UHGV virus genome: UHGV-0332176
Direction: 5' to 3' (one strand)
Length of the DNA: 64,000 nt
Source of the DNA: a virus
Both the position numbers and the translations under genes were made by a program. How positions within the stretch are numbered: the stretch's first letter is position 1; the number at the start of each line of letters is the position of its first letter. The notes beneath the pieces were generated by a model. The model searched no databases. It was not told where the DNA came from and saw only the letters and a program-made list of their open reading frames with translations. This document shows, piece after piece, positions 5,934-43,339 of this stretch.

Positions 5934-5996
5934 TTTAAAATTCCTTATATCTTTGTATATAAGATATTTATAAAAATTCCAACCTCTAAATTAATG

Positions 5997-6025
5997 TTTG
6001 TTCTTATTTATTAAATAAGAACAAA
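5997..6025. promoter_or_regulatory. palindromic element ttgttcttatttattaaataagaacaa just upstream of the RBS of 6035..6559
   Basis: Perfect inverted repeat around the core TATTTATTAAATA; the same core recurs upstream of three other fibre-associated genes. Confidence 0.45.
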
Positions 6026-6034
6026 GGGGTTATT

Positions 6035-6559
6035 ATGAATGATATTAGTAAAATTAAGAGTAATAGAATTGATGATGGAATAAAACCTGGTGATTTATGT
6101 TATTCATTAAGAACAGAAAAAGAAGGATGGTTATTATGTGATGGAACAAGTTATTCAACAACTGATTATCCTGATTTATTTACTGTAATTGGTTATACAT
6201 TTGGTGGAAGTAATTCTCAATTTAATGTGCCTAATTGTTCTGGTAAATTTTTACAAATGGATACATCTAAAACCATAGGACAAAATATTGAAGCTGGTCT
6301 TCCAAATATTGATATGAGTGCATCATTTTATTTAATAGAAGCTCACGGTAGATTTATTGGCTTATCTAATAATACAGGTTCAGTATATGGTGAAGATGCA
6401 GGTGCAATAGAAAATGCTAATGGTGGTGGTGATGTTGGCAGTAATGCTCCAAGAAAAATTCATATAAATGGTAATTTAAATTCATATAATACAATTTATG
6501 GTAATTCAAACACAGTACAACCACCAGCTATAATTGTTAACTATTTTATCAAATATTAA
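6035..6559 (+). CDS. phage tail collar domain protein
   Basis: GWLLCDG...YPDLF..IG.TFGG...FNVPN..GKF matches the phage tail collar domain consensus; paralog of 13821..14336. Confidence 0.7.
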   Translation: MNDISKIKSNRIDDGIKPGDLCYSLRTEKEGWLLCDGTSYSTTDYPDLFTVIGYTFGGSNSQFNVPNCSGKFLQMDTSKTIGQNIEAGLPNIDMSASFYLIEAHGRFIGLSNNTGSVYGEDAGAIENANGGGDVGSNAPRKIHINGNLNSYNTIYGNSNTVQPPAIIVNYFIKY

Positions 6560-6563
6560 GTTT

Positions 6564-6586
6564 ATTTCTATTTATTAAATAGAAAT
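6564..6586. promoter_or_regulatory. palindromic element atttctatttattaaatagaaat upstream of 6599..7003
   Basis: Perfect 11-bp-arm inverted repeat; identical to the element upstream of 48320..48706. Confidence 0.45.
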
Positions 6587-6598
6587 AAAGGATAAAAT

Positions 6599-7003
6599 AT
6601 GACAGATACAAGTAAATTACCTATTTCACGTGTTGATGAATTAATTGATAAATTAGATGAAATTAATATTAAATTAACCAATTTAGAAAATTCTCGTAGA
6701 ATTATTGAAACCTGGTCAGAAGGAACTGAATGGTATCGTGTGTGGTCAGATGGTTGGATTGAACAAGGTGGAACAACTGGATTAATAACATCAAGTGATG
6801 GTTATACAGCAACAACAATTCAATTTAAAAAATCATTTATTAATACAAATTATACTTTTACATCTTGTGCAAATAAATATTCATCTCAAAATGGATTAGG
6901 AACTGCTTATCCACCATTTATTTTTACAAAAAATAATAATTCAGTTATAATTGGAAAATATTCTTGGACAGATGGTTTAGATTGGTATGCTTGTGGATAT
7001 TAA
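6599..7003 (+). CDS. small fibre-associated protein (paralog of 48320..48706)
   Basis: N-terminal 60 aa nearly identical to 48320..48706 (MTDTSKLPISRVDEL..KLDEIN..LTNLEN.R.IIETWSEGTEWYRVWSDGWIEQGG); ends W...CGY. Confidence 0.5.
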   Translation: MTDTSKLPISRVDELIDKLDEINIKLTNLENSRRIIETWSEGTEWYRVWSDGWIEQGGTTGLITSSDGYTATTIQFKKSFINTNYTFTSCANKYSSQNGLGTAYPPFIFTKNNNSVIIGKYSWTDGLDWYACGY

Positions 7004-14452: not shown

Positions 14453-14519
14453 ATTTATGTATTATTTCAGTCGCAGTCATTTCTGTTGCAAGGATAACTG
14501 TTTCCCCACTAAACATAAA

Positions 14520-14660
14520 AGCATTCATCCGTTAGGATTAAGCAGCAATTACATTATAGTTATAGTTAACGTTTTCGTTAGCATTCATTTTATTTTGAAC
14601 CGATATTGGTGGTATCTCGCCAGGTACATTATAGCCATTTTCAATAATGTTCAAAATTCC
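14520..14660 (-). pseudogene. possible decayed DGR variable-repeat-like remnant (non-coding)
   Basis: On the minus strand ...aatgctaacgaaaacgttaactataactataatgtaattgctgcttaatcctaacgg; its 3' part matches the VR 3' end/IMH region of the DGR target (cttgctgctaatgctaaggg) at ~19/21 positions with one indel; Asn-codon rich; no intact ORF. Confidence 0.3.
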
Positions 14661-14864
14661 GTCCGCCCCTAATACATTGATTTTTCATAATATTTTCCTG
14701 GTGGAGCGGCTGGGAGTTAAACCCAGGTCACTATCATTTACTTTGGGATAATTTATCAGCACCATTCAAAATTATTTATAAATTATTTTATTTTAATTGT
14801 CAATAAAATAATTTAGGACATAAATACAGTTATAAGCAATTCACAAATTTAATAAAGGATTATA

Positions 14865-15668
14865 ATGATATATTATGTTTATCAAATAACAAATAAAATT
14901 AATAATAAAATTTACATTGGAAAAAGAAAATATAAAGGAGAAAATCCTTTATTAGATTCATATATGGGGTCAGGAAAATTAATTAAAGAAGCAATTAAAA
15001 AATATGGAAAAAATAATTTTCAAAAAAATATTATTCAAAGTTTTGATAATGAAAATGATGCTTTTAAATTAGAAAAAGAACTTGTAACAAAAGAATTCTG
15101 TAACAGAAAAGATACTTATAATATTCACGAAGGTGGTACAGGAAGTTTTTCTCACATTAATAATAAACCAATTGAAAAAAGAGAAAATATTATAGCTGTT
15201 AGAAAATTATTAAATTCAGGAGTAAAATTTGGTGGAAAAAAATATTTTACAGAAGAAACTTATCAAAAAATTAGTAATTTTAATAAAGAACGATGGAAAA
15301 CTTGGAAAGAAAAACCAGAATTAATGCCAGATTTTTATATAAAACCTCGTACAGAAAAATTTAAACAACATTTATCAGAAATTTTTAAAGGTCAAAATAA
15401 TCCTAATTTTGGTAAACATTGGTATATTCATAAAAAAGCTATTAATATTAATGAAAAGAAAATGTTTTTTGATAATGAAATACCACAAGGTTTTATTACA
15501 GTAAAAGAATGGAAAGATTTACATAAAAATAAGAAAAATAAAGCATATGGAAAACATTGGTATAATGATGGTAAACAAAATTATTTTTTATCCCCAGATG
15601 ATGAAAAAATTAAAATATTAAGTAAAGGGCGTATTGGTACTCTTTTTAAAAAAATTGAAAGTAATTAG
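14865..15668 (+). CDS. GIY-YIG homing endonuclease (Seg/I-TevI-like)
   Basis: N-terminal IYYVYQITN...KIYIGK (GIY...YIG motifs); C-terminal repeated NPNFGKHWY / AYGKHWYNDGK DNA-binding motifs typical of phage GIY-YIG endonucleases. Confidence 0.8.
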   Translation: MIYYVYQITNKINNKIYIGKRKYKGENPLLDSYMGSGKLIKEAIKKYGKNNFQKNIIQSFDNENDAFKLEKELVTKEFCNRKDTYNIHEGGTGSFSHINNKPIEKRENIIAVRKLLNSGVKFGGKKYFTEETYQKISNFNKERWKTWKEKPELMPDFYIKPRTEKFKQHLSEIFKGQNNPNFGKHWYIHKKAININEKKMFFDNEIPQGFITVKEWKDLHKNKKNKAYGKHWYNDGKQNYFLSPDDEKIKILSKGRIGTLFKKIESN

Positions 15669-15948: not shown

Positions 15949-17298
15949 ATGAAAAGAATTAATAATTTATGGGAAGAATTTACTTCACAAGAACATTGGT
16001 TTGAAGCAAGAAAAAGAGCTTTACGAGGTAAAGTTAAAAAATATTGTGTCAAAGCTATTATGAGAAAAGGTGACGAATATTTAGAAAAAATTCGTCAAGA
16101 TGTTATTAATGGTACTTTTGAATTTAAGGGTTATAAAGAACATACTATTTATGAACCTAAAGAACGTAAAATATTTGTAGCAAGAATTGAAGAAAGAATT
16201 TATCATTGGGCATCAATGATGATTACTGAAAGAATTTTTGAACCAACATTTATATTTGATAGCTATTGTTGCCGTAAAAATAAAGGACAACATAAATGTT
16301 CAGATAAATGCAAAGAAATTGTTAAACATAATAATTATTGTTTAAAATTAGATATTTCTAAATTTTATCCAAATATTAATCATAAAATATTAAAAGAGTG
16401 TTTAGCAAGAAAAATTAAAGATATAAGATTTCTCAATGCTTTATACGCAATTATTGATAGTCATAATAAGGATACTGGAAAAGGTATTCCAATTGGTAAT
16501 TATTCTTCTCAAATTTTTGGAAATATTTATATGACTAAATTAGATATGTTTGTTAAGCACACTTTAAAATGCAAACATTATTTAAGATATTGTGATGATT
16601 TTTGTTTATTTTCAAATGATAAAAAGTATTTAAATTGGTGCAAAGAAAAAATTATTGAATTTGTTACTAATGAATTAGATATGAAATTAAGCAAATGTGA
16701 TTTATTTAAAACTAAACAAGGTGTTGATTTTGTTGGATATAGACATTTTCCTCAATATACTTTAGTTAGAAAAAGAACTGCTAAAAAAGTTAAAAAGAGA
16801 ATGTTAAAAATTCAATATAAATTAAAAAATTATGAATTAACTCAAAAAGAATTATTTAGAATGAATGGGCAAGTTGCCAGCTCATATGGTTGGTGTAAAC
16901 ACGCTGATTCTTATAGATTTATGAAAAAATATAAAATTGAAGAATGTTTAAAGGAGATTATAATGAGATATGCAGAATTTAAAAACAAATTACATACAAA
17001 TAAAATGTTATCAATGAAAATTAATGATTTTATTAATAAAGAAATAACAATAACAGGTTGGGAATATTATAAAAAGAATGATAATAATGAAGATGATAAA
17101 AATAAAGAAGCAGTTAAAACTGTTAAAATACATTTAATATATAATGGTGAAGAAAAAATTATTATAACTAAAGCATCGGTTATTATCAGAGATTTAGAAG
17201 AAATTTCACAATTAGAAAAAGAAGAAAATACAAAGATATTTCCCTTTGATGCAACATTAAAGAAAGATACTAAACGAAATTATTTTTATTTTGAATAA
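15949..17298 (+). CDS. DGR-type reverse transcriptase
   Basis: RT motifs: TIYEPKERKIFVA (motif 1), LKLDISKFYPNI (motif A), GIPIGNYSSQIFGNIYM (DGR-specific IGxxxSQ in place of QGxxxSP), LRYCDDFCLF (YxDD), VDFVGYR; lies between TR and VR; extra ~110-aa C-terminal extension. Confidence 0.9.
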   Translation: MKRINNLWEEFTSQEHWFEARKRALRGKVKKYCVKAIMRKGDEYLEKIRQDVINGTFEFKGYKEHTIYEPKERKIFVARIEERIYHWASMMITERIFEPTFIFDSYCCRKNKGQHKCSDKCKEIVKHNNYCLKLDISKFYPNINHKILKECLARKIKDIRFLNALYAIIDSHNKDTGKGIPIGNYSSQIFGNIYMTKLDMFVKHTLKCKHYLRYCDDFCLFSNDKKYLNWCKEKIIEFVTNELDMKLSKCDLFKTKQGVDFVGYRHFPQYTLVRKRTAKKVKKRMLKIQYKLKNYELTQKELFRMNGQVASSYGWCKHADSYRFMKKYKIEECLKEIIMRYAEFKNKLHTNKMLSMKINDFINKEITITGWEYYKKNDNNEDDKNKEAVKTVKIHLIYNGEEKIIITKASVIIRDLEEISQLEKEENTKIFPFDATLKKDTKRNYFYFE

Positions 17299-28251: not shown

Positions 28252-29277
28252 TTATAAATCATCAGTATCTATTATTAAGTTTGGATTAAATTTTACATCA
28301 TTTTCTTTAAATGGTTCACCATATGCACAATAACCCATTGCATTAATAATATATCGTTTATTATTACCAAACACAAAATCTTTTCGGCAATGAACGTGTC
28401 CAGAAATTACTAATTTAATATTATCAAATTCATTAACCCAATCTTCTAAATCAGAAACATAACTAGCATTTGCTTTATGATGTTTGTACGTGTCATCAAT
28501 ACATTGTGGAGATAAACAATGATGTGTTAATAAAATAATTTTGCATTTAGGATTAATTGCTAAAATTTCATTATAACATCTTTTAACTTCCTCTTTTGCT
28601 TTATTATGTAATTCTAAATATAAATTTGGAGTAATGTTTCTTGATGGAGTTTCCCACCCCCATTTAAAATCATTTAATGATTCTTTAGCAACTAACATAT
28701 TTTCTCTAAATATCATTTCAGGAGTTAATTCGGTTGCAGGTACATATTCCTTACCTTTATCCCCTAAATACATATTAATCCAAATATTATATGCTTTCTG
28801 TCGATTATTATATTCTTCAAGTGTTAAATCAGTATATTCATAATTAGTAAAGAATGTTGAACCAATAACTGCAACATCTTCTTTATTTGATAGAAATGTC
28901 CAATCATTTTCCAGATATGTATAATACATATGAGTTTTAGGATATGCTTGTCTTAATTCATCCTGTAATTCATATATAGTTTTTCTTCCTTTTTGATAAA
29001 CTAAATGATTCCCTTCAATAAATATAACTCTTTCATTCGGAAAAAAACCTTCTAAAAATGCTTGAGTATAATCTAAACCTGTTGCCATATCACCTGCAAT
29101 CAATGTTACACAATCATCTTCGTGTTTAAGTTTTCTTTTATAATAGTGGTAAAAAGATGAATGATTAATAGGTAAATTACCATTAATTCCATCTGTAAAA
29201 TGTATATCACTCATTATTCTAATTTTCATAATAAACTCCATATTAATAATACTAATAATATTAAGCATATAAACCAT
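28252..29277 (-). CDS. calcineurin-like metallophosphoesterase (possibly an Mre11/gp47-like nuclease)
   Basis: Ordered MPP motifs: MSDIHF (D-x-H), IAGDMATG (GD), IEGNHL (GNHx), LLTHH, ISGHVH (GH). Confidence 0.6.
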   Translation of the reverse strand: MVYMLNIISIINMEFIMKIRIMSDIHFTDGINGNLPINHSSFYHYYKRKLKHEDDCVTLIAGDMATGLDYTQAFLEGFFPNERVIFIEGNHLVYQKGRKTIYELQDELRQAYPKTHMYYTYLENDWTFLSNKEDVAVIGSTFFTNYEYTDLTLEEYNNRQKAYNIWINMYLGDKGKEYVPATELTPEMIFRENMLVAKESLNDFKWGWETPSRNITPNLYLELHNKAKEEVKRCYNEILAINPKCKIILLTHHCLSPQCIDDTYKHHKANASYVSDLEDWVNEFDNIKLVISGHVHCRKDFVFGNNKRYIINAMGYCAYGEPFKENDVKFNPNLIIDTDDL

Positions 29278-29381
29278 ATAATATATTCTATATCTAATTC
29301 ATCACTAAATGAATCAAACTTTCCTAATTCTATGTCATATTCATTTTCTTCATTATACATAAAATTTCTCAAAAAATAAAA

Positions 29382-30209
29382 TTATTTTATATTAAAATAT
29401 TCATCAAAATGAATTTCTAACACTTTAGCTTTTAAATCTTCGATTGTGCCATTATTTTCAAAAATATGCGTTGGATTATCAATGCCAACCCATCTCCATT
29501 CAGATTCGTGGATATTTTTAATTTCTGAAATTTCATCTTCTATAATCCAGTGTGCTGTGTTAGTATTACCATCAAAAGAACATAACCAATGTTCACCGTT
29601 ATACATATAATCTGATTTGGTACTAATAATTGAGCAAGTATTATATTTTTTTAATTTAATAGAAGATGGAATTTCTTTAAAATTCTTATAAGTTCCAATA
29701 AAGTTCGCATTTTCTGGAAAATTATTCCAAATTTTTCTATGTTCTTCAACTTTTCTAAACCATTTTGGTAATTTCCCACGCTCAACTCGCCAAATTTCAC
29801 CACCAATTCTTTTAATCATTTCAATTTCATTTGGAAAACGAACATCAGTAATAACAATATTTTTATCACTTTCCAAAATCTTTCTTTCAAGACAATCAAC
29901 CCAAATATTTTGATGTAATTGATTTCTTAAAAGATTAGTTCCTAAAAATTGTAAAGCATATCTTGGTGTAAAATCTTTACCCATTTTTTCTGACCAAAAT
30001 TTATCTGGTTGTTCTCTAATAGCTCTATCTTCAGGTGTTTCACCAGCAAGCATTTTCCTATCAAAACCAAATAATAGTGATGCTACATCTTTTAAATGAC
30101 TCGCAAATGACATTTTTTCCCAATTAGGTAAATTGTTAACTAAAATATCACCAACTGTATCTTTGCCAGCTCCCGCTAAACCACAAATACCAATAATTTT
30201 TTTATTCAT
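29382..30209 (-). CDS. deoxynucleoside monophosphate kinase (T4 gp1-like) with C-terminal extension
   Basis: P-loop ICGLAGAGKDTVGD and downstream blocks (HLKDVASLLFG; RYALQFLGTNLLRNQ...IWVD; IVITDVRFPNEIEMIKRIGGEIWRVERG) are collinear with T4 gp1. Confidence 0.65.
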   Translation of the reverse strand: MNKKIIGICGLAGAGKDTVGDILVNNLPNWEKMSFASHLKDVASLLFGFDRKMLAGETPEDRAIREQPDKFWSEKMGKDFTPRYALQFLGTNLLRNQLHQNIWVDCLERKILESDKNIVITDVRFPNEIEMIKRIGGEIWRVERGKLPKWFRKVEEHRKIWNNFPENANFIGTYKNFKEIPSSIKLKKYNTCSIISTKSDYMYNGEHWLCSFDGNTNTAHWIIEDEISEIKNIHESEWRWVGIDNPTHIFENNGTIEDLKAKVLEIHFDEYFNIK

Positions 30210-32337: not shown

Positions 32338-33174
32338 TTATTTGTCAACAATTTTTTCTTCCGTTTTTTTATTCCATAAACCTTTTGCTTTTCTTTCTGC
32401 AAACGTTTCTTTAACAAAATGTTTAGAAATTTCATTTTCATAAATTTCTTTTTCTTGTTCATAATTATTAATTCTTTCATTTGCCATATCAATATATTCT
32501 TGTGAATTATCAATACCAATATAATTATGATTAAGAAATTTACAAGCTATCGCTGTTGTTCCTGAACCTATATATGGGTCAATAATTAATTTATTTGTTT
32601 CATTATCCAGTATAGAATATATGCATCTTAATGGAATTTGTAATGGAAAAGGTGCAGGATGATTTGACTTTTTTTCTGGTGATATTTCCCATACTGATGT
32701 TAGTAATGAATGTTTTGATTTCATTTCTGAACCAATTAAATTATTATTAATTGGTTTATATAGCCAATAAATTCGTTCTTCTATTTGCCAAAATCTATAA
32801 CCTCTAATATTAGATGCTATTTTTCTATTCCAAATAATTTCTTGTCGTATTGTCCAATCAGTTTTTCTTAACCAATCCATTGGATGAATCATATACCCTT
32901 TATCCCATCTTAATTTATGATTATAAAAAAATGAACCGCCAGGTTTTATTATTCTATATAATTCATTTAATACTTTAATTTGTAATTCTTGATAATTATT
33001 TTCAGGCATTGAATCATTATAAGAATTGTATTGAACATCTTTAACTAACCAACCTTTATTTTTTTTCCCAAACTTATTATAAGGCGGAGAAGTTATACCC
33101 ATATCTACACTATTAGAATCAAATTGTTTTAATGTTTCTAATGTATCACCAAAATATATTTTATTTACATTCAC
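32338..33174 (-). CDS. DNA methyltransferase (N6-adenine or N4-cytosine, beta-class motif order)
   Basis: Catalytic motif IV GITSPPYN precedes the AdoMet motif I DPYIGSGTT near the C-terminus. Confidence 0.75.
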   Translation of the reverse strand: MNVNKIYFGDTLETLKQFDSNSVDMGITSPPYNKFGKKNKGWLVKDVQYNSYNDSMPENNYQELQIKVLNELYRIIKPGGSFFYNHKLRWDKGYMIHPMDWLRKTDWTIRQEIIWNRKIASNIRGYRFWQIEERIYWLYKPINNNLIGSEMKSKHSLLTSVWEISPEKKSNHPAPFPLQIPLRCIYSILDNETNKLIIDPYIGSGTTAIACKFLNHNYIGIDNSQEYIDMANERINNYEQEKEIYENEISKHFVKETFAERKAKGLWNKKTEEKIVDK

Positions 33175-33796
33175 TTAAAAGCCTTTCATATAAATCTTTA
33201 ACAATATAAGATTTATAATATTCTAATTTAGTTTTTGATGCAATATAAATTAATTCTGCATCATCAATATAAGATTTATAATTAAATTGTAAACTTCGTA
33301 AATAATGATTTGGCTTTCTTGGTAAATGTGAATCACCAAAATAATTATATAACTTATTATAAAAATGTGTTTTTAATTTTGGAGAATCATACTTTATTTT
33401 AAAAATATAAATTAATTTTCCATCTATAAAACCACCTATTAATAATGTTGGATTTTCTTTTAAATGCTTATGGTATCTATCCCAAGTATAATCACTATAA
33501 GAACCAGACCCATTTAATTTTTCAGGTTTTTGCTTGGAAGTATCACAATTACTTAATTTAACTTCACAAAATCCTTCTTCATTTTGTCCATCATATCCTA
33601 ATTTAGATAATAATGGTTGATAATTACATTCATATAAAATAGTTCTTTCACGAGCAGTAGATGAATTTTTATCATTAATAAATTGCTTTATTAATTGTAT
33701 AATAATTTCTTTATTATTTTCTTTATTTAATGTTTGATTAAATTCTTGAATTTTATCAGTTGAATAAAAATATATTAATTTATCTATGATATTCAT
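33161..33796 (-). CDS. hypothetical protein
   Basis: ORF track; overlaps the methyltransferase start by 14 nt. Confidence 0.4.
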   Translation of the reverse strand: MNIIDKLIYFYSTDKIQEFNQTLNKENNKEIIIQLIKQFINDKNSSTARERTILYECNYQPLLSKLGYDGQNEEGFCEVKLSNCDTSKQKPEKLNGSGSYSDYTWDRYHKHLKENPTLLIGGFIDGKLIYIFKIKYDSPKLKTHFYNKLYNYFGDSHLPRKPNHYLRSLQFNYKSYIDDAELIYIASKTKLEYYKSYIVKDLYERLLSECK

Positions 33797-33826: not shown

Positions 33827-33913
33827 TGGAAGTCTGGACGAGATTCGAACTCGCATCATCTTTTCAGATATACGGTTTTGCAGACCGCTGTATAGCCATT
33901 CTACCACCAGACT
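33827..33913 (-). tRNA. tRNA with anticodon GCA (Cys-type) but atypically long 17-nt variable arm
   Basis: Acceptor agtctgg/ccagact perfect, anticodon stem gcggt/accgt with loop ctGCAaa, extra arm atatctgaaaagatgat, T-arm gcgag-ttcgaat-ctcgt, encoded CCA; identity uncertain. Confidence 0.55.
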
Positions 33914-33920
33914 TATAAAA

Positions 33921-33995
33921 TGGTACGGTAAGTGAGAATCGAACTCACATATTCAGCTTGGAAGGCTGACGTAATAGCCATTATACCATTACCGC
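33921..33995 (-). tRNA. tRNA-Gly (anticodon UCC)
   Basis: Acceptor gcggtaa/ttaccgt, anticodon stem tcagc/gctga with loop ctTCCaa, T-arm gtgag-ttcgatt-ctcac, encoded CCA. Confidence 0.75.
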
Positions 33996-34000
33996 ATTAA

Positions 34001-34075
34001 TGGAGCGACTTGCGAGAATCGAACTCACATCTAAACCTTGGCAAGGTCTTGTATTAACCATTATACGAAAGTCGC
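34001..34075 (-). tRNA. tRNA-Gly (anticodon GCC)
   Basis: Acceptor gcgactt/aagtcgc perfect, anticodon stem agacc/ggttt with loop ttGCCaa, T-arm gtgag-ttcgatt-ctcgc, encoded CCA. Confidence 0.75.
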
Positions 34076-34081
34076 AAATAT

Positions 34082-34155
34082 TGGCAGGAGCATAGGGATT
34101 TGAACCCCAACAGACAGTTTTGGAGACTGTAATGCTACCGTTACATCATACTCCT
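34082..34155 (-). tRNA. tRNA-Trp (anticodon CCA)
   Basis: Acceptor aggagta/tgctcct (one U-G pair), anticodon stem acagt/actgt with loop ctCCAaa, T-arm tgggg-ttcaaat-cccta, encoded CCA. Confidence 0.7.
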
Positions 34156-34185
34156 TTAATAATTTTATTTATTATAATAATATTT

Positions 34186-34722
34186 TTATTTAATAATATC
34201 AATATATTTTTTATTAATTTCTTTAACAAGCCAAACGTTATTATCAGAAATATAAAATTCAATACCATCAGCTAACATTTGTTTAGCATCAATAGATAAA
34301 ATAATTGTTTTACCTTTTCTTCTATCACCAACTTTTTTAGCTGTTTCAATATCATTTGATAAATGAACATATTGCCTTTTCATAGGTAATAATCCTTTTT
34401 TCATAATTGAAGGAATATTACTTTCTTGTGTTCCGTGATATAAAATAATTGGTGGGATAGATTTCTTAAAATGTATATCTACATCTTTTGTTGTATGTCC
34501 TTGATTAGCTCTAATTTTTGTACCATCTTCTGATATAGAAAATCGTTTCTTATCATTTGTATCAACAATTTCTTTAATTATATCATAAGATAATTTCATT
34601 TCAGAATTATCAATAATATATTGTATATCTCCCCATCCTTCTTTATCTAATTTCAATTTAATAATTTCTGGTTTATGGCGTAGAATATAACTCAAATACT
34701 TACTAATTTCTATATTATTCAT
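34186..34722 (-). CDS. kptA: RNA 2'-phosphotransferase Tpt1/KptA family
   Basis: Family signature blocks in order: LSYILRH.P...L..D.EGW, KKRF.I......IRANQGH, LYHGT.....SI...GL.PM.R..VHLS.D...A..VG.RR, then ILSIDA and FY.S.N.VWL. Confidence 0.75.
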   Translation of the reverse strand: MNNIEISKYLSYILRHKPEIIKLKLDKEGWGDIQYIIDNSEMKLSYDIIKEIVDTNDKKRFSISEDGTKIRANQGHTTKDVDIHFKKSIPPIILYHGTQESNIPSIMKKGLLPMKRQYVHLSNDIETAKKVGDRRKGKTIILSIDAKQMLADGIEFYISDNNVWLVKEINKKYIDIIK

Positions 34723-34798
34723 AATATATACCTATAAAAAAAATAATGAGTGATTCCTAAATAGTTAGGATTAAATCTGTCACTCACAGATTATAATA

Positions 34799-35038
34799 TT
34801 ATTTTACACCAACAACTTCACGATAATCTACAATGTCAGCGTCTTTAACATTTGGTACTTCATTATCTGTATAAATAGTTGCTTCTAGTAATGGACCAAA
34901 ATTATTAGTATGAGCATTATAATATGCAGAATATGCAATACCTTTTTTCTTCAATACAAGCATTGTTTTAGGACGTGTCCAATCAGCATTGCTTTTACCA
35001 ATTTCACTCAATAATTTTTCTTTTACTTCTTCAGTCAT
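34799..35038 (-). CDS. hypothetical protein
   Basis: ORF track. Confidence 0.35.
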   Translation of the reverse strand: MTEEVKEKLLSEIGKSNADWTRPKTMLVLKKKGIAYSAYYNAHTNNFGPLLEATIYTDNEVPNVKDADIVDYREVVGVK

Positions 35039-35050
35039 TTTATTCCTCTC

Positions 35051-35290
35051 TTATTTTGATATTTTAATATTTTCTTTTAAAAAACCTGTTACAAATCCTA
35101 AAAATGCTCCCACTTGAAACATAGTAACATTTGTAATACCTAATTGGGCTAAAATTCCAAGAATTGTATCTTCAAATGCAAGTCCAACAATCCAACCTGC
35201 AACTCCACCAAAAAATGTTGAAGCAATACAAGAAACTACAATTAGTATTGGAGTTAAAATAGCAAATAAAACAATCATCATTTTATTCAT
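35051..35290 (-). CDS. small membrane protein with 2-3 TM helices (holin-like by size and topology only)
   Basis: 79 aa, hydrophobic segments IVLFAILTPILIVVSCIASTFFGGVAGWIVGLAF and VGAFLGFVTGFL, charged C-terminus. Confidence 0.3.
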   Translation of the reverse strand: MNKMMIVLFAILTPILIVVSCIASTFFGGVAGWIVGLAFEDTILGILAQLGITNVTMFQVGAFLGFVTGFLKENIKISK

Positions 35291-35769
35291 TTTCTTTTAA
35301 CCTTTTCTGTTACGACAAATGAAGTTGCTGTTTCAGTAATAACTTCATCTGTTTCCTGAACAATAAATCCTTTAAATTTAATATTATAAATGGTTTCATT
35401 TTTTTTAAATAGTTTTCCTTTTTTAGTTTCCTTAACTATAGAAGCTACTTCATCTTTATATTTGTAGTTTTCAATTATGTCAAGCATTTTTTTAAGTTTT
35501 GGATTTGAATTTAATTCAGTTTCATCAATTTTAATTTCAACTACATTTTCAAGAATAGAACGAGCAAAATAATAACCATTAATTATTTCACATTTTTTTC
35601 CTTTAAAATAAAAGATAGGTGATTCATTATCTGTTGGAATATGAACAATATCTGCTTTATAAACTTCATATCTCCACCCAATTTTAGAATAAAATTTGTG
35701 AATATTTTCATTCCAAATCACTTCATATGAAGGAGTTTTTGCTTCACAATCTTTAATTATCCAAACCAT
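35287..35769 (-). CDS. hypothetical protein
   Basis: ORF track. Confidence 0.35.
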   Translation of the reverse strand: MVWIIKDCEAKTPSYEVIWNENIHKFYSKIGWRYEVYKADIVHIPTDNESPIFYFKGKKCEIINGYYFARSILENVVEIKIDETELNSNPKLKKMLDIIENYKYKDEVASIVKETKKGKLFKKNETIYNIKFKGFIVQETDEVITETATSFVVTEKVKRK

Positions 35770-35772
35770 TAA

Positions 35773-36066
35773 TTATTCTCCCAAATCATTGAAAGTTAAT
35801 ACACGATTAATATATCTTTCTAATGGAACATATGAACCATCTTTCATTTGAATTAAACATTCAGAAAAAATTGGACGTTTTGTATTTTTTTCATATGTGT
35901 AACCAGTATAAGCACAAGATACTTTATCAACCATAAAATTTCCAAAACCAACAAGGCAAAGTAATGCAAGAACAGCAATTACACTAATTTTAAAATCACG
36001 TTTAGTAAATATGTCATCATCTTCCCAATCTTCTTCAATTTTTTTTCTCAAAAACCAATCAAACAT
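35773..36066 (-). CDS. hypothetical membrane protein
   Basis: TM segment VIAVLALLCLVGFGNFMV. Confidence 0.35.
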   Translation of the reverse strand: MFDWFLRKKIEEDWEDDDIFTKRDFKISVIAVLALLCLVGFGNFMVDKVSCAYTGYTYEKNTKRPIFSECLIQMKDGSYVPLERYINRVLTFNDLGE

Positions 36067-36454
36067 TTTCTTTACCTTTCTTTTTCAAAGTTGCACATTT
36101 CATAAATTCTTCATAAGTTGAATTCAATTTACCATTATAAAATTTTCGTGCCACATAATCAGATGTAAATGGTGATTTAAAAATACTTTTAAATACATCT
36201 TTAATCTGATTCAATGTTTCAGGAAAACCTACCATTATAACAGATGGAATAAACATCAAAGTCACCCATAATAGTAATAATGGTGTATACCAATGCTCAA
36301 TTTCTAAATGTTCATCTTTTACATAATAACGGTATTTTATCATACCATATCTAAATTTCCTTAAAGGAAATAATTTTTTATGGTCTTTCATTGATAAAGA
36401 ATATTCATCATATCCTTTTTCTAATAACGGAATATACTTATATTCTTTACCCAT
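36059..36454 (-). CDS. hypothetical membrane protein
   Basis: TM segment LLLLWVTLMFIPSVIMVGF. Confidence 0.35.
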   Translation of the reverse strand: MGKEYKYIPLLEKGYDEYSLSMKDHKKLFPLRKFRYGMIKYRYYVKDEHLEIEHWYTPLLLLWVTLMFIPSVIMVGFPETLNQIKDVFKSIFKSPFTSDYVARKFYNGKLNSTYEEFMKCATLKKKGKENV

Positions 36455-36456
36455 TT

Positions 36457-36687
36457 TTAATTTCCTTCTTTTTTGTCAAGTGTAAAATATCTCTTTAAAT
36501 CAAATCCTTTTAGAGATGGCATATAATAACCATCTTTACCAGTATTTTTTACTCGGTATGTATTACCAGAAACGTCTTGCATCCATATACTTTTTTCAGT
36601 TACTTTAGTGACTGTTCTGGTGCTTATTACTCTATCAGACCAATCGTGATGACTTGAAAATGTATCTCCAACTTTAACTTCAACCAT
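36457..36687 (-). CDS. hypothetical protein
   Basis: ORF track. Confidence 0.35.
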   Translation of the reverse strand: MVEVKVGDTFSSHHDWSDRVISTRTVTKVTEKSIWMQDVSGNTYRVKNTGKDGYYMPSLKGFDLKRYFTLDKKEGN

Positions 36688-36771
36688 TTTAATTTCCTTT
36701 CATTAAAAATATCATCATTTGATATTGGTACTATAACATACAAAAATAACTTGTCAAGAACTTTTTTTAAT

Positions 36772-37368
36772 TTATTTTATATTTAATTTTTCTTTTATTT
36801 CTTCCCACGACCAAGGTTCATAATTATGTGTATCAACCCCAATATCCATACAATTGATATTTTGATGTGGCATTAATTTCGTAAAATCAGCTAAATTAAA
36901 TTTTCCGTGAGTATGACCATACAAATGAATTGACCCGTGCCAAGCACAATCCCATTCTGCTATTGGATAATGAGATAATATAATTCTATTGTCATCAATA
37001 ATAATTCGTTTATATGGAACAATTTCTGCCCATACATTTGATAATTGATGTGGTATAAGTTTATCGTGATTACCAATTATTAAATATTTAATACCATTCA
37101 TTTTAGAAAATGTTTGTTGGATTTTATCAGAATTCCAACCCCAACAAACGTCTCCTAAAACATATATAATATCATTTACACCAACTTTTTTATTCCAACG
37201 CTTAATAATTTCTTCATTCATTTGCTGAACAGATGCAAATGGTCTATTTGAATGTCGTATACTATTTGTATGGTCTAAATGTAAATCACTTGTAAAAAAT
37301 ATCATTTTATTCATCACCATACATAATTGGTTCAGCATCATAAAAATAAGTTTCAACCTTATTTTCAA
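36772..37368 (-). CDS. calcineurin-like metallophosphoesterase (small phosphatase/phosphodiesterase)
   Basis: MPP motifs in order: FFTSDLHLDH, VLGDVCWG, IIGNHD, LSHYP, LYGHTHG. Confidence 0.65.
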   Translation of the reverse strand: MKIRLKLIFMMLNQLCMVMNKMIFFTSDLHLDHTNSIRHSNRPFASVQQMNEEIIKRWNKKVGVNDIIYVLGDVCWGWNSDKIQQTFSKMNGIKYLIIGNHDKLIPHQLSNVWAEIVPYKRIIIDDNRIILSHYPIAEWDCAWHGSIHLYGHTHGKFNLADFTKLMPHQNINCMDIGVDTHNYEPWSWEEIKEKLNIK

Positions 37369-38218
37369 CTTTTTTCATAATTGGTAATTGTAATTCTTGA
37401 ACTTCACTACGCATTACCATATTATTTTCAGGTCTTTTATCAGTAGGTATTTTAGATAATGTTTCTTCATCAAGAACTTTCATTACATTAACTCTTTTGA
37501 AATAAGACCCTCTTTTAAGAAATGGTTTAATATCATTAAAATTAATACCTTTTTCTTGAAATAGCATTTCATTCATTTCTGCTGTTGATTTACCTTGTAA
37601 TTCTTTATGACTAAAATTTGCTTGTGCAACCATACTAACAGCATTTCGTGCAGCATCATTTTCTCGCCATACAAAAGCATTAGCTAATTCTATCATATTT
37701 GGTAATTGAAAGACACGACAATCAAAATTTGGTTTAAGATTTTCAACTTTTTCTTTTAATTTCGGATATTTCATACAATTTAAAACAAAAGATACAGTTG
37801 CCATTGATGCAAGAACAGATGTTAATTTAAATAATCTTCCATCAAACGGTGCTTTACTCATATCTTCCCAAGCTAATGAAATTTCATCTGACTGAACATA
37901 TCCAAGTTTTGCATTTGTCTGTTTTACTAAATCTTGACAAACCTCTCTCATAACTGCAACAAATTCCATATCAAATGGTTTATCTAATCCACGACAAAAA
38001 GTATGAAAAGCACGACCATCTAATCTAACATATACAGGTAATCTTGGCATTAACATTGTTGATGTTGTTAATGCTTCATAAGTTTTCATACGGTCTCCCA
38101 AATTATCATTTATCATTTTAATATCCTTTAAATTTACTACAAAAACAAATCCGTTTTTTTCTTCTTTTTTCTCTTTTAAACATTGCAAAATCAATTCTTT
38201 TACAAATTGTATTTTCAA
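37307..38218 (-). CDS. Thg1-like protein (tRNA-His guanylyltransferase family, 3'-5' nucleotidyltransferase); true start probably the internal Met near 38116
   Basis: LPVYVRLDGRAFHTF and YVQSDEISL match the Thg1 catalytic blocks (VRIDGRGFHKF; SDEYSF); the N-terminal 34 aa of the track ORF overlap the upstream gene frame. Confidence 0.65.
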   Translation of the reverse strand: MKIQFVKELILQCLKEKKEEKNGFVFVVNLKDIKMINDNLGDRMKTYEALTTSTMLMPRLPVYVRLDGRAFHTFCRGLDKPFDMEFVAVMREVCQDLVKQTNAKLGYVQSDEISLAWEDMSKAPFDGRLFKLTSVLASMATVSFVLNCMKYPKLKEKVENLKPNFDCRVFQLPNMIELANAFVWRENDAARNAVSMVAQANFSHKELQGKSTAEMNEMLFQEKGINFNDIKPFLKRGSYFKRVNVMKVLDEETLSKIPTDKRPENNMVMRSEVQELQLPIMKKVENKVETYFYDAEPIMYGDE

Positions 38219-39160: not shown

Positions 39161-39283
39161 TGTTATAATCTTTCATTATTTGTTATTGATAAAGTTAATA
39201 TAACATAGAAGAATTATTTGTCAATAGAAAAAAATAAAAAATCCAAGAATTTTTCTTGGATTTTTATAAAATATATTAATTTT

Positions 39284-39595: not shown

Positions 39596-42500
39596 TTATT
39601 CAATAATAATATTATTTTTTCCACGTAAATAATCAATAGTTATCAAAATTGTTCCTGCTGTTGAAACTTGAATAACAGGTAAAGAACCTGCGTCATTTCC
39701 AACAGGAATAAATTTTGTAATTAACTGCATATTTTCATCTAACAATTCCAAATATAATGTATAATCTGAAAAATTATATTCTAATGTATAATCAGAATCA
39801 TCATCAATAATTTCAAAAGTTGTTGGGTCAACTTTCTGTAAATCTCTTTCAAAATTAAATACATATTCAAAACCTGTTTCAGGAATTACCATCCAATATG
39901 AAGGATTAAATAATTCGTGAGCATCATTTGAAGTATGTGCTTGTTTACATTGATAATATCTATCTTGATAAGCAACTTTATCATCAACTTGATATTGAGT
40001 TGCTGTTACCCAATTTTGATAATAACTTGAATTAATATCACGTTTAGTAACGTCTAATATATTTCTATTAAATAATAGGCGAGCTGAATCTTCATTATTA
40101 CTTGCTACAATAGAAATATATTTAATATCTTTTAAATCAACCGTTAAACCAGTATCTGAATCTTTACCTTGTTTATAAACATCTTCCCACATAGAAATTT
40201 TACCAGTACGTCCTGCATCTTCATCAAATGATGTTGATGAAGTATGTGCTTGACTACACATATAATAATATGTTGATGTTACTCCATCATATTCTTCATC
40301 GTGTTTTATAATATCACCAACTGCATAATATAAATTTGGTTCCCAAGTTAAAGTATTTTCATTAATTTTATTAACTATTGAATAAAATGGTCGTCTAATA
40401 TTAAATGATAATTGTTTTAAATTTACGAAATCTCCATAAATTCCTTTATCAAAAAAGATAATAGGGATTCTTGTTTTCATAATTGTTTGAATAGCTTGAT
40501 AATCAATACCAACACGATTTTCTGTTGATGCTAATTTATTAACATATTCAACGTTTGGAATAGCATCATTATCTGAAGCAATTCTTTCGGCATATGATAA
40601 ATTAGTGTGTGTAGAATCATCAATAACTAAATAATTATCACGAGTTGTTTGAAATGTGATTTTTTGACCACTTTCATAGCTACGAATAACATTACCATTT
40701 AAGTCCAGAGCTTTATTTAATAAAACAGATGGAGTATAATAATTTACTAATTGCCAATATTCAGCATTATTTGTGGTAATATCAGTTGATGAAGTGTGTT
40801 CTTTTAAACAAATATAAATATTATAACCAATTTCAAAAGGTATTTGAACATAATCATTAACATTATATGTTACACCAACTTCCCAAGTTGAATAAGATGC
40901 ATTATTTCCACCAAGTTCTAAATGTCCATAAAAACCAGAACCTAATTCAACATCTCCTGTTAAATTTGTACCACTTATTGTAACTTTATTATTATTAGAA
41001 GCATCTCCTTGTTCAATTGTAATACCATTAGTTAATGGACGAACAACTTCTTTTCCATCAATAATTTCAGTATTATATAATCCTTTAACTAAATCATCCC
41101 CATTTGGAGTAGCTAAATAATCTAAAAATACCCATTTTGGTTGATAAAAATCAAATTGATAGATTCTTTTGGAACTCATTTCAGGGTCTAATGTGTCAAT
41201 ATTATTTAATGTTGAATTATTTGTAAAACGAGTAGCAATTGTATTACTTTCTGTAACGTTTTTATCAAATAAAGAATTAATAAATGTTAAATATTCAGTT
41301 CTTTCGCTTAAAGTAATAATAGATTTTCCTAATGAACAATTACTAAATCTATTTCCAATAAATGAACCATTTGAAGTTTTATTATTTTCATTATAAGAAG
41401 TTATATTAATTGCTTGATTTGTAATATCTTTAAATAAGCAATTATTAAATAAAAACCAACTTAAATTATTTGAAATATTTACACCATTTCTAGCATTTTC
41501 AAAAATGCAATTAAAGAAATGTACATAAGAAGAATCTTGTAAACCTTGTGATTTAAAAATATTAACTAATGTTGAACCATTACCATTTTGTATATCAGAA
41601 TAACCAATGAATTTAACATTTCTAAACCAAACATCATATGTTGAACCTAACAATAAAACAGTTTCTAATGTACTTTCAGACACATCAAAAGTCATATCTT
41701 CAACAATAATATTGTGTGCAATTTCTCCATTAACACCATATTTGTTTGTTGATGATAAATCACTTAAAACATAATTACTATCTAATGTTGTTAATAAAAC
41801 ATTCAAACCATTTTCATAACTATTTGTTTTAATAATAGTTCTATCAATTCCTTCACCTTTTAAATGAATACCAGTTGGTAATGCTAATGGTTTAGAATTA
41901 ATAATATATTCACCAGCAGGAACTAACATTGTTTTGAAGCAATCAGGTTTATTATCTGCACAATAAACAGTTAATATAGCATTATAAAAAGCATCTGAAT
42001 CATCAGTTGTTCCATCGCCCAATACACCAAAATTTTTAACTGAACAATAATCATCTAAAACTTCTTGAATTGTTCTATCAGAAGGTGGTGTAGCATTTTC
42101 TGTATAACTTGGTTCAGTTGTAATACCAATAATATCAAGAATTCCACCTTGTTCTTGACCTTCACCATTTTCTAAAACAAGTGTTTCTCCATTGCTAATA
42201 ATTTGAATTTTTCCACCTTCAACAACTTGTGCTTTAACACCTAAATTTAAAGAATTTATTTTATCACAAAATCCTTGAGCATCTGTTTCTTTATCAAATG
42301 TAATTGTTTGACCATTTATAACAATTGTTGTTCCAGCTGGAATAGATGGATACAATTTGGAACCTGTTACAATTATAGGTAATTTACTACCATTACCATT
42401 TGAATAAACATATTTAATCATATCCAAATTATCACTAAATTCAGTTAAAACCTGAATATTACCATATGGAAATGTATTAGATTGAATTCTTTCTTTTAAT

Positions 42501-42640
42501 TTTGGATTATTTGGATTACCAATAAACAAACTATTAGTATCAGTTGCTAAACCAAATTCACCTTCGTGTAAATCTGTTAATTCACTTTGATTACCACGTC
42601 TATGTTGTATTAATGCAATTTGTTTTGTATTTTTTGCCAT
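39596..42640 (-). CDS. tailspike / tail fibre with pectate-lyase-like beta-helix (depolymerase-type) domain and three C-terminal CBM5/12-like modules
   Basis: SVKNFGVLGDGTTDDSDAFYNAI (classic N-terminal motif of right-handed beta-helix tailspikes/polysaccharide lyases); the three W....Y..GD.V.......Y.C...HTS modules are detailed in the CBM5/12 finding. Confidence 0.7.
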   Translation of the reverse strand: MAKNTKQIALIQHRRGNQSELTDLHEGEFGLATDTNSLFIGNPNNPKLKERIQSNTFPYGNIQVLTEFSDNLDMIKYVYSNGNGSKLPIIVTGSKLYPSIPAGTTIVINGQTITFDKETDAQGFCDKINSLNLGVKAQVVEGGKIQIISNGETLVLENGEGQEQGGILDIIGITTEPSYTENATPPSDRTIQEVLDDYCSVKNFGVLGDGTTDDSDAFYNAILTVYCADNKPDCFKTMLVPAGEYIINSKPLALPTGIHLKGEGIDRTIIKTNSYENGLNVLLTTLDSNYVLSDLSSTNKYGVNGEIAHNIIVEDMTFDVSESTLETVLLLGSTYDVWFRNVKFIGYSDIQNGNGSTLVNIFKSQGLQDSSYVHFFNCIFENARNGVNISNNLSWFLFNNCLFKDITNQAINITSYNENNKTSNGSFIGNRFSNCSLGKSIITLSERTEYLTFINSLFDKNVTESNTIATRFTNNSTLNNIDTLDPEMSSKRIYQFDFYQPKWVFLDYLATPNGDDLVKGLYNTEIIDGKEVVRPLTNGITIEQGDASNNNKVTISGTNLTGDVELGSGFYGHLELGGNNASYSTWEVGVTYNVNDYVQIPFEIGYNIYICLKEHTSSTDITTNNAEYWQLVNYYTPSVLLNKALDLNGNVIRSYESGQKITFQTTRDNYLVIDDSTHTNLSYAERIASDNDAIPNVEYVNKLASTENRVGIDYQAIQTIMKTRIPIIFFDKGIYGDFVNLKQLSFNIRRPFYSIVNKINENTLTWEPNLYYAVGDIIKHDEEYDGVTSTYYYMCSQAHTSSTSFDEDAGRTGKISMWEDVYKQGKDSDTGLTVDLKDIKYISIVASNNEDSARLLFNRNILDVTKRDINSSYYQNWVTATQYQVDDKVAYQDRYYQCKQAHTSNDAHELFNPSYWMVIPETGFEYVFNFERDLQKVDPTTFEIIDDDSDYTLEYNFSDYTLYLELLDENMQLITKFIPVGNDAGSLPVIQVSTAGTILITIDYLRGKNNIIIE

Positions 42641-42742: not shown

Positions 42743-43339
42743 TTAAGTTAAATCAATCCCTAATTCTTTGGCTTTATTTAGTAATTGAACTCTATTATAA
42801 CATTTCATTCTTTTTAAAATATTTGTTATATGAACTTTAACAGTAGATTCTGAAATATTCAATTCATATGCTATCTGTTTATTAGATAAACCTTTATTGA
42901 TTAATTTAATAACATCAATCTGCTTATTTGTTACAATTTTCTTAAATGAATTAATTACTAAATTATTTGGAAAGTATGTTTCATTTAATAAAATCAAATT
43001 AATAATGTTAAAAATTTTATCATTGGAATACTTTTTAGAAATATATCCAGCAACATTATATCTCATATAATTAACTATATCAGTTGAAATATATTCTGAT
43101 GTTAAAATAATTAATTTACCATTTAAATTTTGTTTTTGAAAAAATGATAAAATAGTTAAAATATCAATTTTTGGAGTTTTTGTAATAAAAATCAAATCAT
43201 ATTGGTTAGATAGAATATTATTTTTGATATTATTATAATCACAGCAAGCATTAATTTCACAATTTTCATCAATATGTGTTAATAATTCTTTTAATCCTGT
43301 AATATACAGTTCTTCATCATCTATTATAAGTATTTTCAT
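42743..43339 (-). CDS. two-component response regulator, NarL/FixJ (LuxR-type HTH) family
   Basis: N-terminal receiver-like domain MKILIIDDEE...YDLIFIT...LTSEY...K; C-terminal LuxR HTH LSNKQIAYELNISESTVKVHITNILKRM. Confidence 0.65.
   Translation of the reverse strand: MKILIIDDEELYITGLKELLTHIDENCEINACCDYNNIKNNILSNQYDLIFITKTPKIDILTILSFFQKQNLNGKLIILTSEYISTDIVNYMRYNVAGYISKKYSNDKIFNIINLILLNETYFPNNLVINSFKKIVTNKQIDVIKLINKGLSNKQIAYELNISESTVKVHITNILKRMKCYNRVQLLNKAKELGIDLT

Follow-up and report, generated by a model that had tools for sequence, protein, structure and literature searches.

A Tpt1 RNA 2'-phosphotransferase and a bacterial-type Thg1-like protein near a tRNA array in a jumbo phage of the human gut: a candidate region for RNA maintenance

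Large phages have been predicted to carry gene kits for RNA repair. In jumbo phages these kits comprise tRNAs, the ligases RtcB, Rnl1 or Rnl2, kinases and HAD phosphatases, while calcineurin-like and HD domains are present 'in a small number', KptA in a few and Thg1 'sporadically'; a CCA-adding enzyme, RlaP and PTH2 are also listed (Iyer, Anantharaman, Krishnan, Burroughs and Aravind 2021, PMC7824862, section 3.4.9). KptA has further been placed in large caudoviruses along with 2H, Macro and NADAR domains (Iyer et al. 2022, PMC9503650, section 3.7.3). We analysed a 64,000-nucleotide stretch, hereafter the window, of the virus genome UHGV-0332176, in which positions 33,827 to 38,218 hold four tRNA genes, a homolog of the RNA 2'-phosphotransferase Tpt1/KptA, a Thg1-like protein (TLP) and a small calcineurin-type metallophosphoesterase (MPE). 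This locus resembles the described toolkits in that a jumbo phage with tRNA genes encodes a KptA/Tpt1, a Thg1-type polymerase and a calcineurin-like phosphatase, whose purpose may likewise be to undo host attack on tRNA. In contrast, the available text of both papers gives these parts separately and does not describe a co-localisation of Tpt1 and TLP (the term Thg1 occurs 0 times in that of PMC9503650), and the phage studied here lacks a nearby ligase, kinase, 2H, Macro or NADAR gene. Since the toolkit was predicted in 2021 and 2022, the idea of a repair module, raised in an earlier note on this DNA, repeats an existing prediction. Our addition is small: Tpt1 and TLP genes are neighbours in several unrelated lineages, once together with an MPE of another subfamily, and here they occur without a nearby ligase. 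We propose, with a probability of about 0.5, that the stretch is an RNA-maintenance accessory region, by which the phage provides tRNAs and repairs RNA ends.

Two other systems invite comparison. Phage T4 repairs tRNA-Lys cleaved by PrrC with Pnkp and Rnl1, so that there, too, a phage with its own tRNAs encodes enzymes that heal broken tRNA ends. T4 uses a kinase/HAD-phosphatase and an ATP-dependent ligase, however, and has no 3'-5' polymerase; its repair leaves no 2'-phosphate and therefore needs no Tpt1. No T4 component was detectable in the window, and the claim of the earlier note that the composition differs from the Pnkp/Rnl1 pair is supported. In fungi and plants, Trl1 (ligase, kinase and 2H cyclic phosphodiesterase) acts before Tpt1. 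The Tpt1 tetrad is common to that system and to the phage protein, and a NAD+-dependent clearing of 2'-phosphate after healing or sealing would be implied in both. In contrast, neither a Trl1-type ligase nor a 2H phosphodiesterase was found in the 84 kb that we read (the 64-kb window and 10 kb beyond each of its ends, in a genome of ~287 kb), and bacterial and phage tRNAs have no protein-spliced introns. As to the TLP, it is established that characterised bacterial-type TLPs mend 5'-truncated tRNAs through templated 3'-5' addition (PMC4820378, PMC5041481).

The genome belongs to a large tailed phage of an uncultured lineage, a jumbo phage of ~287 kb with 25% GC as measured on the 64-kb window. 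PHROGs and Pfam scans of the window identified genes for a clamp loader, DnaB helicase, primase, GroEL/GroES and tail proteins, together with a group II intron reverse transcriptase and homing endonucleases. A megablast search of 50,697 deposited phage records with the 6-kb region gave no match. Public assemblies contain an identical TLP protein in 374 blocks and an identical Tpt1 in 187. Exact copies of either protein sit on contigs of 203-288 kb whose sample names fit human-gut cohort studies; one of these contigs belongs to a metagenome assembly at NCBI, and GTDB lists another as a 'genome'. This phage is common in the human gut. The GTDB species-representative 'genome' L182 (CASEYV010000001.1, uncultured bacterium bin.81, a 283.5-kb contig) is apparently this phage and not a bacterium. 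A TLP 54% identical to that of the window is encoded on a 4.3-kb contig (L183, CANROV010000170.1) of a Candidatus Gastranaerophilales metagenome-assembled genome, a weak hint at a host for this AT-rich gut phage.

A sister lineage is represented in IMG/VR by two contigs (L004 and L005) with 79-88% nucleotide identity across the region. The order TLP, MPE, six small open reading frames (ORFs), Tpt1 and tRNA array is kept in every copy, in dozens of human-gut assemblies. Comparison with the sister lineage gave dN/dS ratios of 0.07 for TLP (relative to a copy of ~88% nucleotide identity), 0.15 for MPE (over its C-terminal 149 codons) and 0.16 for Tpt1. These low values reveal purifying selection on all three genes, which are therefore functional.

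Tpt1 (34186..34722, minus strand, 178 aa) is a predicted NAD+-dependent RNA 2'-phosphotransferase. It matches PF01885 over nearly the whole profile, residues 3-167 spanning profile positions 3-176 of 177 (3e-50, 171.2 bits for a cut-off of 26), and phrog_5470 at 7e-63. The closest structure in the PDB is that of Runella slithyformis Tpt1 (7kw8, 5.5e-48), and the catalytic tetrad R15-H16-R60-R116 aligns to Runella R16-H17-R64-R119 and is invariant in the alignment of homologs. The assignment to Tpt1/KptA made in the earlier note thus holds, with a full-length match above the cut-off and an intact tetrad. The protein falls below the NCBIfam equivalog cut-off (best model NF002014, 227.2 versus 239 bits), a near miss consistent with a divergent phage member of the Tpt1 family. 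It has an ADP-ribosyltransferase (ART) fold, and weak DarT and PARP matches were also obtained with Pfam.

The tRNA array that follows Tpt1 consists of tRNA-Trp-CCA (34082-34155), tRNA-Gly-GCC (34001-34075), tRNA-Gly-UCC (33921-33995) and tRNA-Cys-GCA (33827-33913), all on the minus strand. These are the four tRNAs announced at 33827-34155, and ARAGORN and Rfam concur on each of them, with Rfam scores of 54-68 bits across the array. As read from the sequence, the CCA end is encoded and the acceptor stem is paired in all four. The acceptor stems being well paired, the adjacent tRNAs have no need of 5' editing and were ruled out as substrates of such a reaction. The tRNA-Cys(GCA), which all relatives conserve, is 87 nt long with a long variable arm and has a class II shape with U73; a class II form is unusual for tRNA-Cys. 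An 89-nt tRNA-Cys(GCA) folding into a clean class II cloverleaf is also present on the unrelated Tpt1-bearing contig L106 (248-336).

The TLP (37307..38116, minus strand, 269 aa) is predicted to be a templated 3'-5' nucleotidyltransferase of the bacterial type. It matches PF04446 (Thg1; 4e-31, 108 bits for a cut-off of 29.2), Thg1C (3e-7, 31 bits for a cut-off of 26.3) and phrog_4717 (7e-82). The family claimed for an ORF at 37307..38218 stands, and the catalytic residues are kept; the 5' end of that ORF was over-long and the class had to be specified. The gene starts at the ATG at 38116, where its homologs also begin, and public assemblies contain the same 269-aa product. The metal-binding carboxylates D33, D77 and E78 align to D29, D76 and E77 of human Thg1 and are invariant in the homolog alignment. 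In the comparison with the PDB, the best match was the TLP of Bacillus thuringiensis (4kgk, 5e-41), far ahead of Thg1 from Candida (4e-18) and human (1e-14), and the eukaryal stretch DCHINNLYN is replaced by DAARNAVSM, as in the B. thuringiensis protein. Because of this proximity to 4kgk and this replacement, we assign the phage Thg1 homolog on sequence grounds to the bacterial-type TLPs and not to the bona fide tRNA-His guanylyltransferases. By homology with 4kgk-type proteins, we infer that it adds nucleotides in a templated 3'-5' reaction to 5'-truncated tRNA. The TLP of B. thuringiensis, its closest solved relative, and the mitochondrial 5'-editing TLPs of Dictyostelium share its palm-domain carboxylates, and templated 3'-5' repair would be expected of all of them. 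The gene studied here differs in being phage-encoded, and the phage tRNAs adjacent to it have paired acceptor stems.

A role of the TLP in adding G-1 to the tRNA-His of the phage or of its host appears highly improbable. Homologs are annotated 'tRNA-His guanylyltransferase' in databases, a tRNA-His lies directly upstream of TLP at one locus (L071), and bacterial TLPs are able to add G-1 opposite C73 in a templated manner. Against this, the 84 kb read contain no tRNA-His, this TLP-type protein lacks the motif of eukaryal Thg1, and G-1 is normally encoded by bacterial tRNA-His genes. A tie of TLP to tRNA-His was rejected as only 5 of the 110 tRNAs near TLP genes are tRNA-His.

The MPE (36772..37305, minus strand, 177 aa) is a small calcineurin-type protein related to phrog_547 (8e-46) and to Aquifex aq_1665. 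An ORF at 36772..37368 had been described as a calcineurin-like phosphoesterase; the superfamily is correct and all its motifs are present, while the 5' end was again over-long. Apart from these two 5' ends, the positions given in the earlier note are right, and none of the family matches is due to chance. The likely start is the ATG at 37305 (MIFFTSDLHLDH), which lies 2 nt past the TLP stop codon and is preceded by a GGTGA sequence resembling, by eye, a Shine-Dalgarno site; public gene calls use 37341. The motifs DxH, GD, GNH(D/E), H and GHxH are intact, and D7, H9, D52, N79, H80, H112, H131 and H133 are invariant in the homolog alignment. The Pfam Metallophos_2 score is under the curated cut-off (17 versus 27 bits). 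A profile of the family compared with the PDB matched the uncharacterised Aquifex protein aq_1665 (1xm7, 3.5e-24), then GpdQ, YfcE and Vps29, with ApaH also listed. The superfamily fold and metal-binding motifs are common to the MPE, lambda phosphatase and the phosphatase domain of Clostridium thermocellum Pnkp, but the MPE of the window belongs to another, aq_1665-like subfamily. Its sole NCBIfam contact is the ligase-associated phosphoesterase PdeM (TIGR04123). With 24.5 bits, far under the cut-off of 150, it is not a PdeM member; PdeM proteins are likewise small MPEs found near polynucleotide ligases, but their clusters hold DNA ligases and Lhr helicases that were not seen here.

We then examined whether these genes travel together in other phages. 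For each of TLP and Tpt1, 80 IMG/VR loci with a homolog were collected together with 10 kb on each side, and their ORFs were called and clustered. Dereplication at 80% identity of the anchor protein left 72 TLP lineages, those most similar to the TLP of the window, and 26 Tpt1 lineages. Thirty-five lineages anchored on thymidylate synthase (ThyA) served as control in one-sided Fisher tests; this control is small and was seeded from a ThyA adjacent to Tpt1, so that the p-values given here are indicative only. TLP is the commonest genuine neighbour of Tpt1, being found within 10 kb in 5/26 lineages versus 0/35 controls (p=0.011, or p=0.026 without the lineage of the window). In the other four lineages (L102, L104, L106 and L159), the TLPs are 35-43% and the Tpt1s 49-57% identical to those of the window, and no further gene family is shared with it. 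On two additional contigs, TLP lies 19-29 kb from Tpt1. The proximity of Tpt1 and TLP appears non-random in unrelated phages, as judged on a small sample with an imperfect control. At L159 the order is Tpt1, a 111-aa ORF, TLP and an MPE of a different subfamily, with a NADAR-tRNA_bind fusion and a Nudix gene nearby. The best PDB match of another member of this MPE subfamily, from L157, is lambda phosphatase (1g5b), and a lambda-phosphatase-like MPE is encoded directly downstream of Tpt1 in three other lineages. Tpt1 adjoins a tRNA array in three other lineages as well.

The remaining neighbours of both genes were also informative. Around TLP, the top genuine neighbour is a PF09414 RNA ligase with an N-terminal OB fold, present in 7/72 lineages, for five of which the distance does not exceed 725 nt; two further TLP lineages have Rnl1-like ligases and RlaP. 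Among the 26 Tpt1 lineages, NADAR, Nudix and a PncA-like isochorismatase-family protein were each found in 4, RlaP, an AAA_28 kinase, Nampt, a Macro-like protein and YqeY each in 3, and Rnl1-like ligases in 2. By guilt by association, this places Tpt1 and TLP in neighbourhoods of RNA repair and of NAD+/ADP-ribose metabolism. A reverse survey around Rnl1-like ligases, comprising 62 lineages, found RlaP in 11, TLP in 4 and Tpt1 in 2 of them. The MPE family of the window lies within 10 kb of these ligases in 10/62 lineages versus 1/35 controls (p=0.043), often with RlaP, which links it modestly to RNA-ligase islands.

In the ThyA control loci themselves (L264-L343), 12/35 lineages have a member of a Macro-like family (fam5) within 10 kb of thymidylate synthase and 5 have Tpt1 there, which suggests that ThyA, Tpt1 and Macro-like genes form a recurring arrangement in one phage group.

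The nature of these neighbours raises the question of whether Tpt1 acts on RNA repair at all. It could mainly be a NAD+-consuming ADP-ribosyltransferase engaged in a NAD+/ADP-ribose conflict with the host, with TLP and the tRNAs as unrelated neighbours. The ART fold and the weak matches to DarT and PARP fit this explanation, as does the fact that, after TLP, the commonest neighbours of Tpt1 elsewhere are NADAR, Nudix, the PncA-like protein, Nampt and Macro-like proteins. A polyvalent protein with an ART-PolyVal domain is, moreover, encoded just outside the window. To our knowledge, bacteria have no pathway that produces internal RNA 2'-phosphates, and Tpt1 enzymes reportedly ADP-ribosylate 5'-phosphorylated nucleic acids, at RNA or DNA ends, in vitro according to the Shuman laboratory. 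However, the phage protein retains the full R-H-R-R tetrad, on which the two steps of 2'-phosphate removal both depend. Tpt1 also has RlaP and Rnl1-like ligases as recurring neighbours, and none of these genes for NAD salvage or ADP-ribose processing was found in the window. Neighbours involved in NAD salvage would equally be expected of an RNA-repair enzyme that consumes NAD+. Taken on both sides, this evidence makes a main role in ADP-ribosylation very unlikely.

If, as we propose, the region serves RNA maintenance, the enzymes could act as follows. TLP would activate a 5'-phosphate with ATP and then carry out 3'-5' nucleotide addition templated by the 3' strand of the acceptor stem, and would thereby rebuild tRNAs short of 5' nucleotides. 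Tpt1 would move an RNA 2'-phosphate onto NAD+, leaving a normal 2'-OH; this phosphate could be that of a ligation junction or of an RNA terminus, the latter being allowed by a subset of Tpt1 enzymes. The MPE, translated right after TLP, may serve to trim ends that bear a 2',3'-cyclic phosphate or a 3'-phosphate, or its substrate may be a nucleotide by-product; this is the weakest part of the scheme. Broken tRNAs would be sealed by a ligase of the host or by one from another part of the phage genome. We infer these substrates, the cooperation of the enzymes and a purpose in counter-defence; that anticodon or tRNA-end nucleases are the target is pure conjecture.

A more specific proposal is that Tpt1, a bacterial-type TLP and an MPE of interchangeable subfamily constitute a distinct recurrent phage cassette that restores tRNAs without a dedicated ligase. 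The MPE and Tpt1 would clear 2'- and 3'-phosphate ends and TLP would re-synthesise lost 5' nucleotides, the target being a class of host nuclease directed at the acceptor stem or 5' end and not at the anticodon loop. We know of no described host nuclease of this class. We keep this proposal open because of the Tpt1-TLP-MPE trio of L159 and the Tpt1-TLP pairs of three more unrelated lineages, and regard it as quite unlikely.

The absence of a recognisable RNA ligase from the window had been noted before, and it extends 10 kb past each end. We applied PHROGs and Pfam to 40 ORFs (the 20 largest and 20 of mid-size), six-frame profile hidden Markov models built from phage Rnl1-like and PF09414 ligases, and a scan for the KxDG motif. 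P-loop motifs were present only in the clamp loader and, by chance, in Tpt1. RtcB and a CCA-adding enzyme did not turn up in the Pfam and PHROG scans, which covered ORFs of at least ~130 aa and used no dedicated profiles for them. When IMG/VR was scanned with the Rnl1-like profile, no contig of the phage stood among the best 80 of 206 matches. Two candidates were considered and rejected. A 316-aa ORF beside a tRNA-Leu, tried as a hidden ligase or kinase, has no KxDG motif, P-loop or profile match, and the REC and GerE protein at 42743-43339, considered for a 'cRec' domain of RNA repair, proved to be a response regulator of the ordinary kind with a helix-turn-helix.

The main alternative is that there is no module, and that three independent accessory genes lie in a variable, mobile-element-rich, tRNA-bearing region. 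TLP would then perform routine quality control or maturation of the 5' ends of phage or host tRNAs, the MPE would be a general phage phosphoesterase acting on nucleotides or DNA ends, and Tpt1 would have a separate role. The architecture of the locus gives weight to this explanation. MPE and Tpt1 are not contiguous: the six ORFs of unknown function (34799..36687, minus strand; 76, 131, 97, 160, 79 and 79 aa) and a promoter-like site lie between them, perhaps dividing the region into two transcription units. The first 79-aa ORF (35051-35290) looks membrane-spanning by eye, and the 160-aa and 131-aa ORFs have no Pfam match. The order of the six ORFs is kept in all close relatives; homologs of them were not found in the other Tpt1-TLP loci. 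The promoter-like site in the gap between MPE and the 76-aa ORF (TTGACA-16-TG-TATAGT, 36730..36757, minus strand) matches the consensus at 11/12 positions and would be a possible start of a unit with the six small ORFs, Tpt1 and the tRNAs. A terminator-like hairpin followed by a second such site (39197..39265, minus strand; TTGACA-16-TG-TATATT, 11/12, at 39224-39197) is found upstream of four small ORFs, TLP and MPE, and could be the start of a TLP/MPE unit. Both are consensus matches only, and since promoters and terminators are as numerous over the region as in shuffled sequences, these two 11/12 sites with an extended -10 are suggestions only. The common orientation of the genes is likewise uninformative because all genes from ~43 kb to 17 kb are on the minus strand.

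Insertions of homing endonucleases in relatives point in the same direction. In the sister lineage (L004/L005, 10810-12160), two ORFs are inserted between TLP and MPE, one of 97 aa and one of 293 aa for an endonuclease in which NUMOD-like repeats were recognised by eye. Between Tpt1 and tRNA-Trp, most of the relatives in ENA have a zinc-ribbon ORF of 229 aa (L008, 14005-14694), which by eye resembles an endonuclease and which the window lacks, and one relative (L015, 5603-6328) has an HNH/T5-nicking endonuclease gene just upstream of TLP. The TLP, Tpt1 and tRNA genes persist through every such insertion.

Several further results weigh against a region devoted to RNA repair, in addition to the separation of MPE from Tpt1 and to the limits of the ThyA control. 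From the TLP side, Tpt1 is nearby in only 1/72 lineages, that of the window itself. Any tRNA within 10 kb was found at only 14/80 Tpt1 and 22/80 TLP loci. In the 84 kb read, we detected none of the genes that accompany Tpt1 and TLP elsewhere, namely Rnl1-like or PF09414 RNA ligase, RlaP, NADAR, Macro, Nudix and NAD-salvage genes; nor was a polynucleotide kinase or 2H phosphoesterase detected there, as judged from general Pfam and PHROG scans of ORFs of at least ~130 aa, with no dedicated profiles. Our literature search did not find an experimental study of a phage TLP or a phage Tpt1. Annotated neighbourhoods in cultured phages were uninformative for TLP (CcrPW, BcepSaruman, FADO) as for KptA (phiCD211, fHe-Yen9-02, FBKp24), nearly all genes being labelled 'hypothetical protein'. 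Other points concern the MPE. Its family is generic, with members in 1526 phage records, most of them from genera that give few or no TLP or Tpt1 matches, and its proximity to TLP is not above the control level (5/72 versus 1/35 lineages, p=0.36-0.46). Its profile matched neither lambda phosphatase nor C. thermocellum Pnkp, the MPEs with a known role in healing RNA ends, in the PDB at E<=10. On both contigs of the sister lineage, the gene is disrupted at its 5' end by an in-frame TGA and a frameshift; it reads FFTSDL*LHLDH there, and the T-run before this sequence is one T longer. The MPE may be dispensable. The proposal that it is an RNA-healing phosphatase is weakened by these results: it has no detectable similarity to either of these two types, its proximity to TLP is not above the control and its N-terminus is disrupted in close relatives.

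The absence of any module nevertheless seems to us somewhat unlikely. TLP tops the real neighbours of Tpt1 in phages that otherwise share nothing, the Tpt1-TLP-MPE trio is seen again in L159, and only 2 nt separate the TLP stop from the start codon of the MPE. Of the counter-defence repair module claimed in the earlier note, the part that stands is the setting of Tpt1 and TLP in RNA repair, indicated by five lineages and, elsewhere, by ligase, RlaP and NAD/ADP-ribose neighbours; the link of the MPE is weaker and the genes are not contiguous.

Other features of the genome were noted. Next to the tRNA array on its downstream side, the gene of an N6/N4 DNA methyltransferase (PF01555, 4e-33) and a 211-aa ORF overlap by 14 nt, the pair occupying 32338-33796 on the minus strand. 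The 211-aa ORF belongs to phrog_3210, of unknown function, has no PDB match and contains an E-V-K motif that by eye resembles PD-(D/E)xK nucleases. Together, the two genes resemble a restriction-modification cassette; they are absent from the IMG/VR relatives L004 and L005 (79-88% nucleotide identity). A second, larger metallophosphoesterase (28252-30209, minus strand, 341 aa; PF00149 4e-9, phrog_1649) adjoins a deoxynucleoside monophosphate kinase. A permuted, two-piece tmRNA is encoded at 14469-14807 on the minus strand (Rfam RF04321, 87.5 bits for a gathering threshold of 47; alpha_tmRNA, 77 bits); missed by ARAGORN, it is flanked by a tail-collar gene and a GIY-YIG homing endonuclease. The mobile elements inside the tail-gene region are on the plus strand and consist of this GIY-YIG endonuclease (14865-15668, phrog_314, 6e-39) followed by a reverse transcriptase of the group II intron type (15949-17298, phrog_1423, 2e-101). 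The phage GroEL (48794-50818, minus strand, phrog_5725, 7e-148) adjoins Cpn10/GroES. The response regulator at 42743-43339 (minus strand), composed of REC and a GerE/LuxR helix-turn-helix, lies beside the gene of a 1014-aa tail fibre or depolymerase with a pectate-lyase fold (39596-42640). Beyond the window end (L181), the ART-PolyVal-domain protein has 843 aa (4305-6836) and a GreA/GreB homolog is encoded at 2285-2764. Before the window start (L180, 12002-18987), a run of seven ORFs of ~240-330 aa each, without Pfam match, lies beside a weak radical-SAM protein.

As the evidence stands, this region is a well-documented example of a published prediction and does not define a new category. We know of no natural role for either Tpt1 or TLP in bacteria or phages, and the recurrent pairing of the two genes would, if it reflects a common function, offer a hypothesis that can be tested for each of these orphan activities. 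It would then also imply a host nuclease, as yet undiscovered, whose action harms the 5' ends of tRNAs or generates 2'-phosphates. If our proposal is correct, a large phage that ranks among the more prevalent in the human gut would protect translation both by providing tRNAs and by mending tRNA ends.

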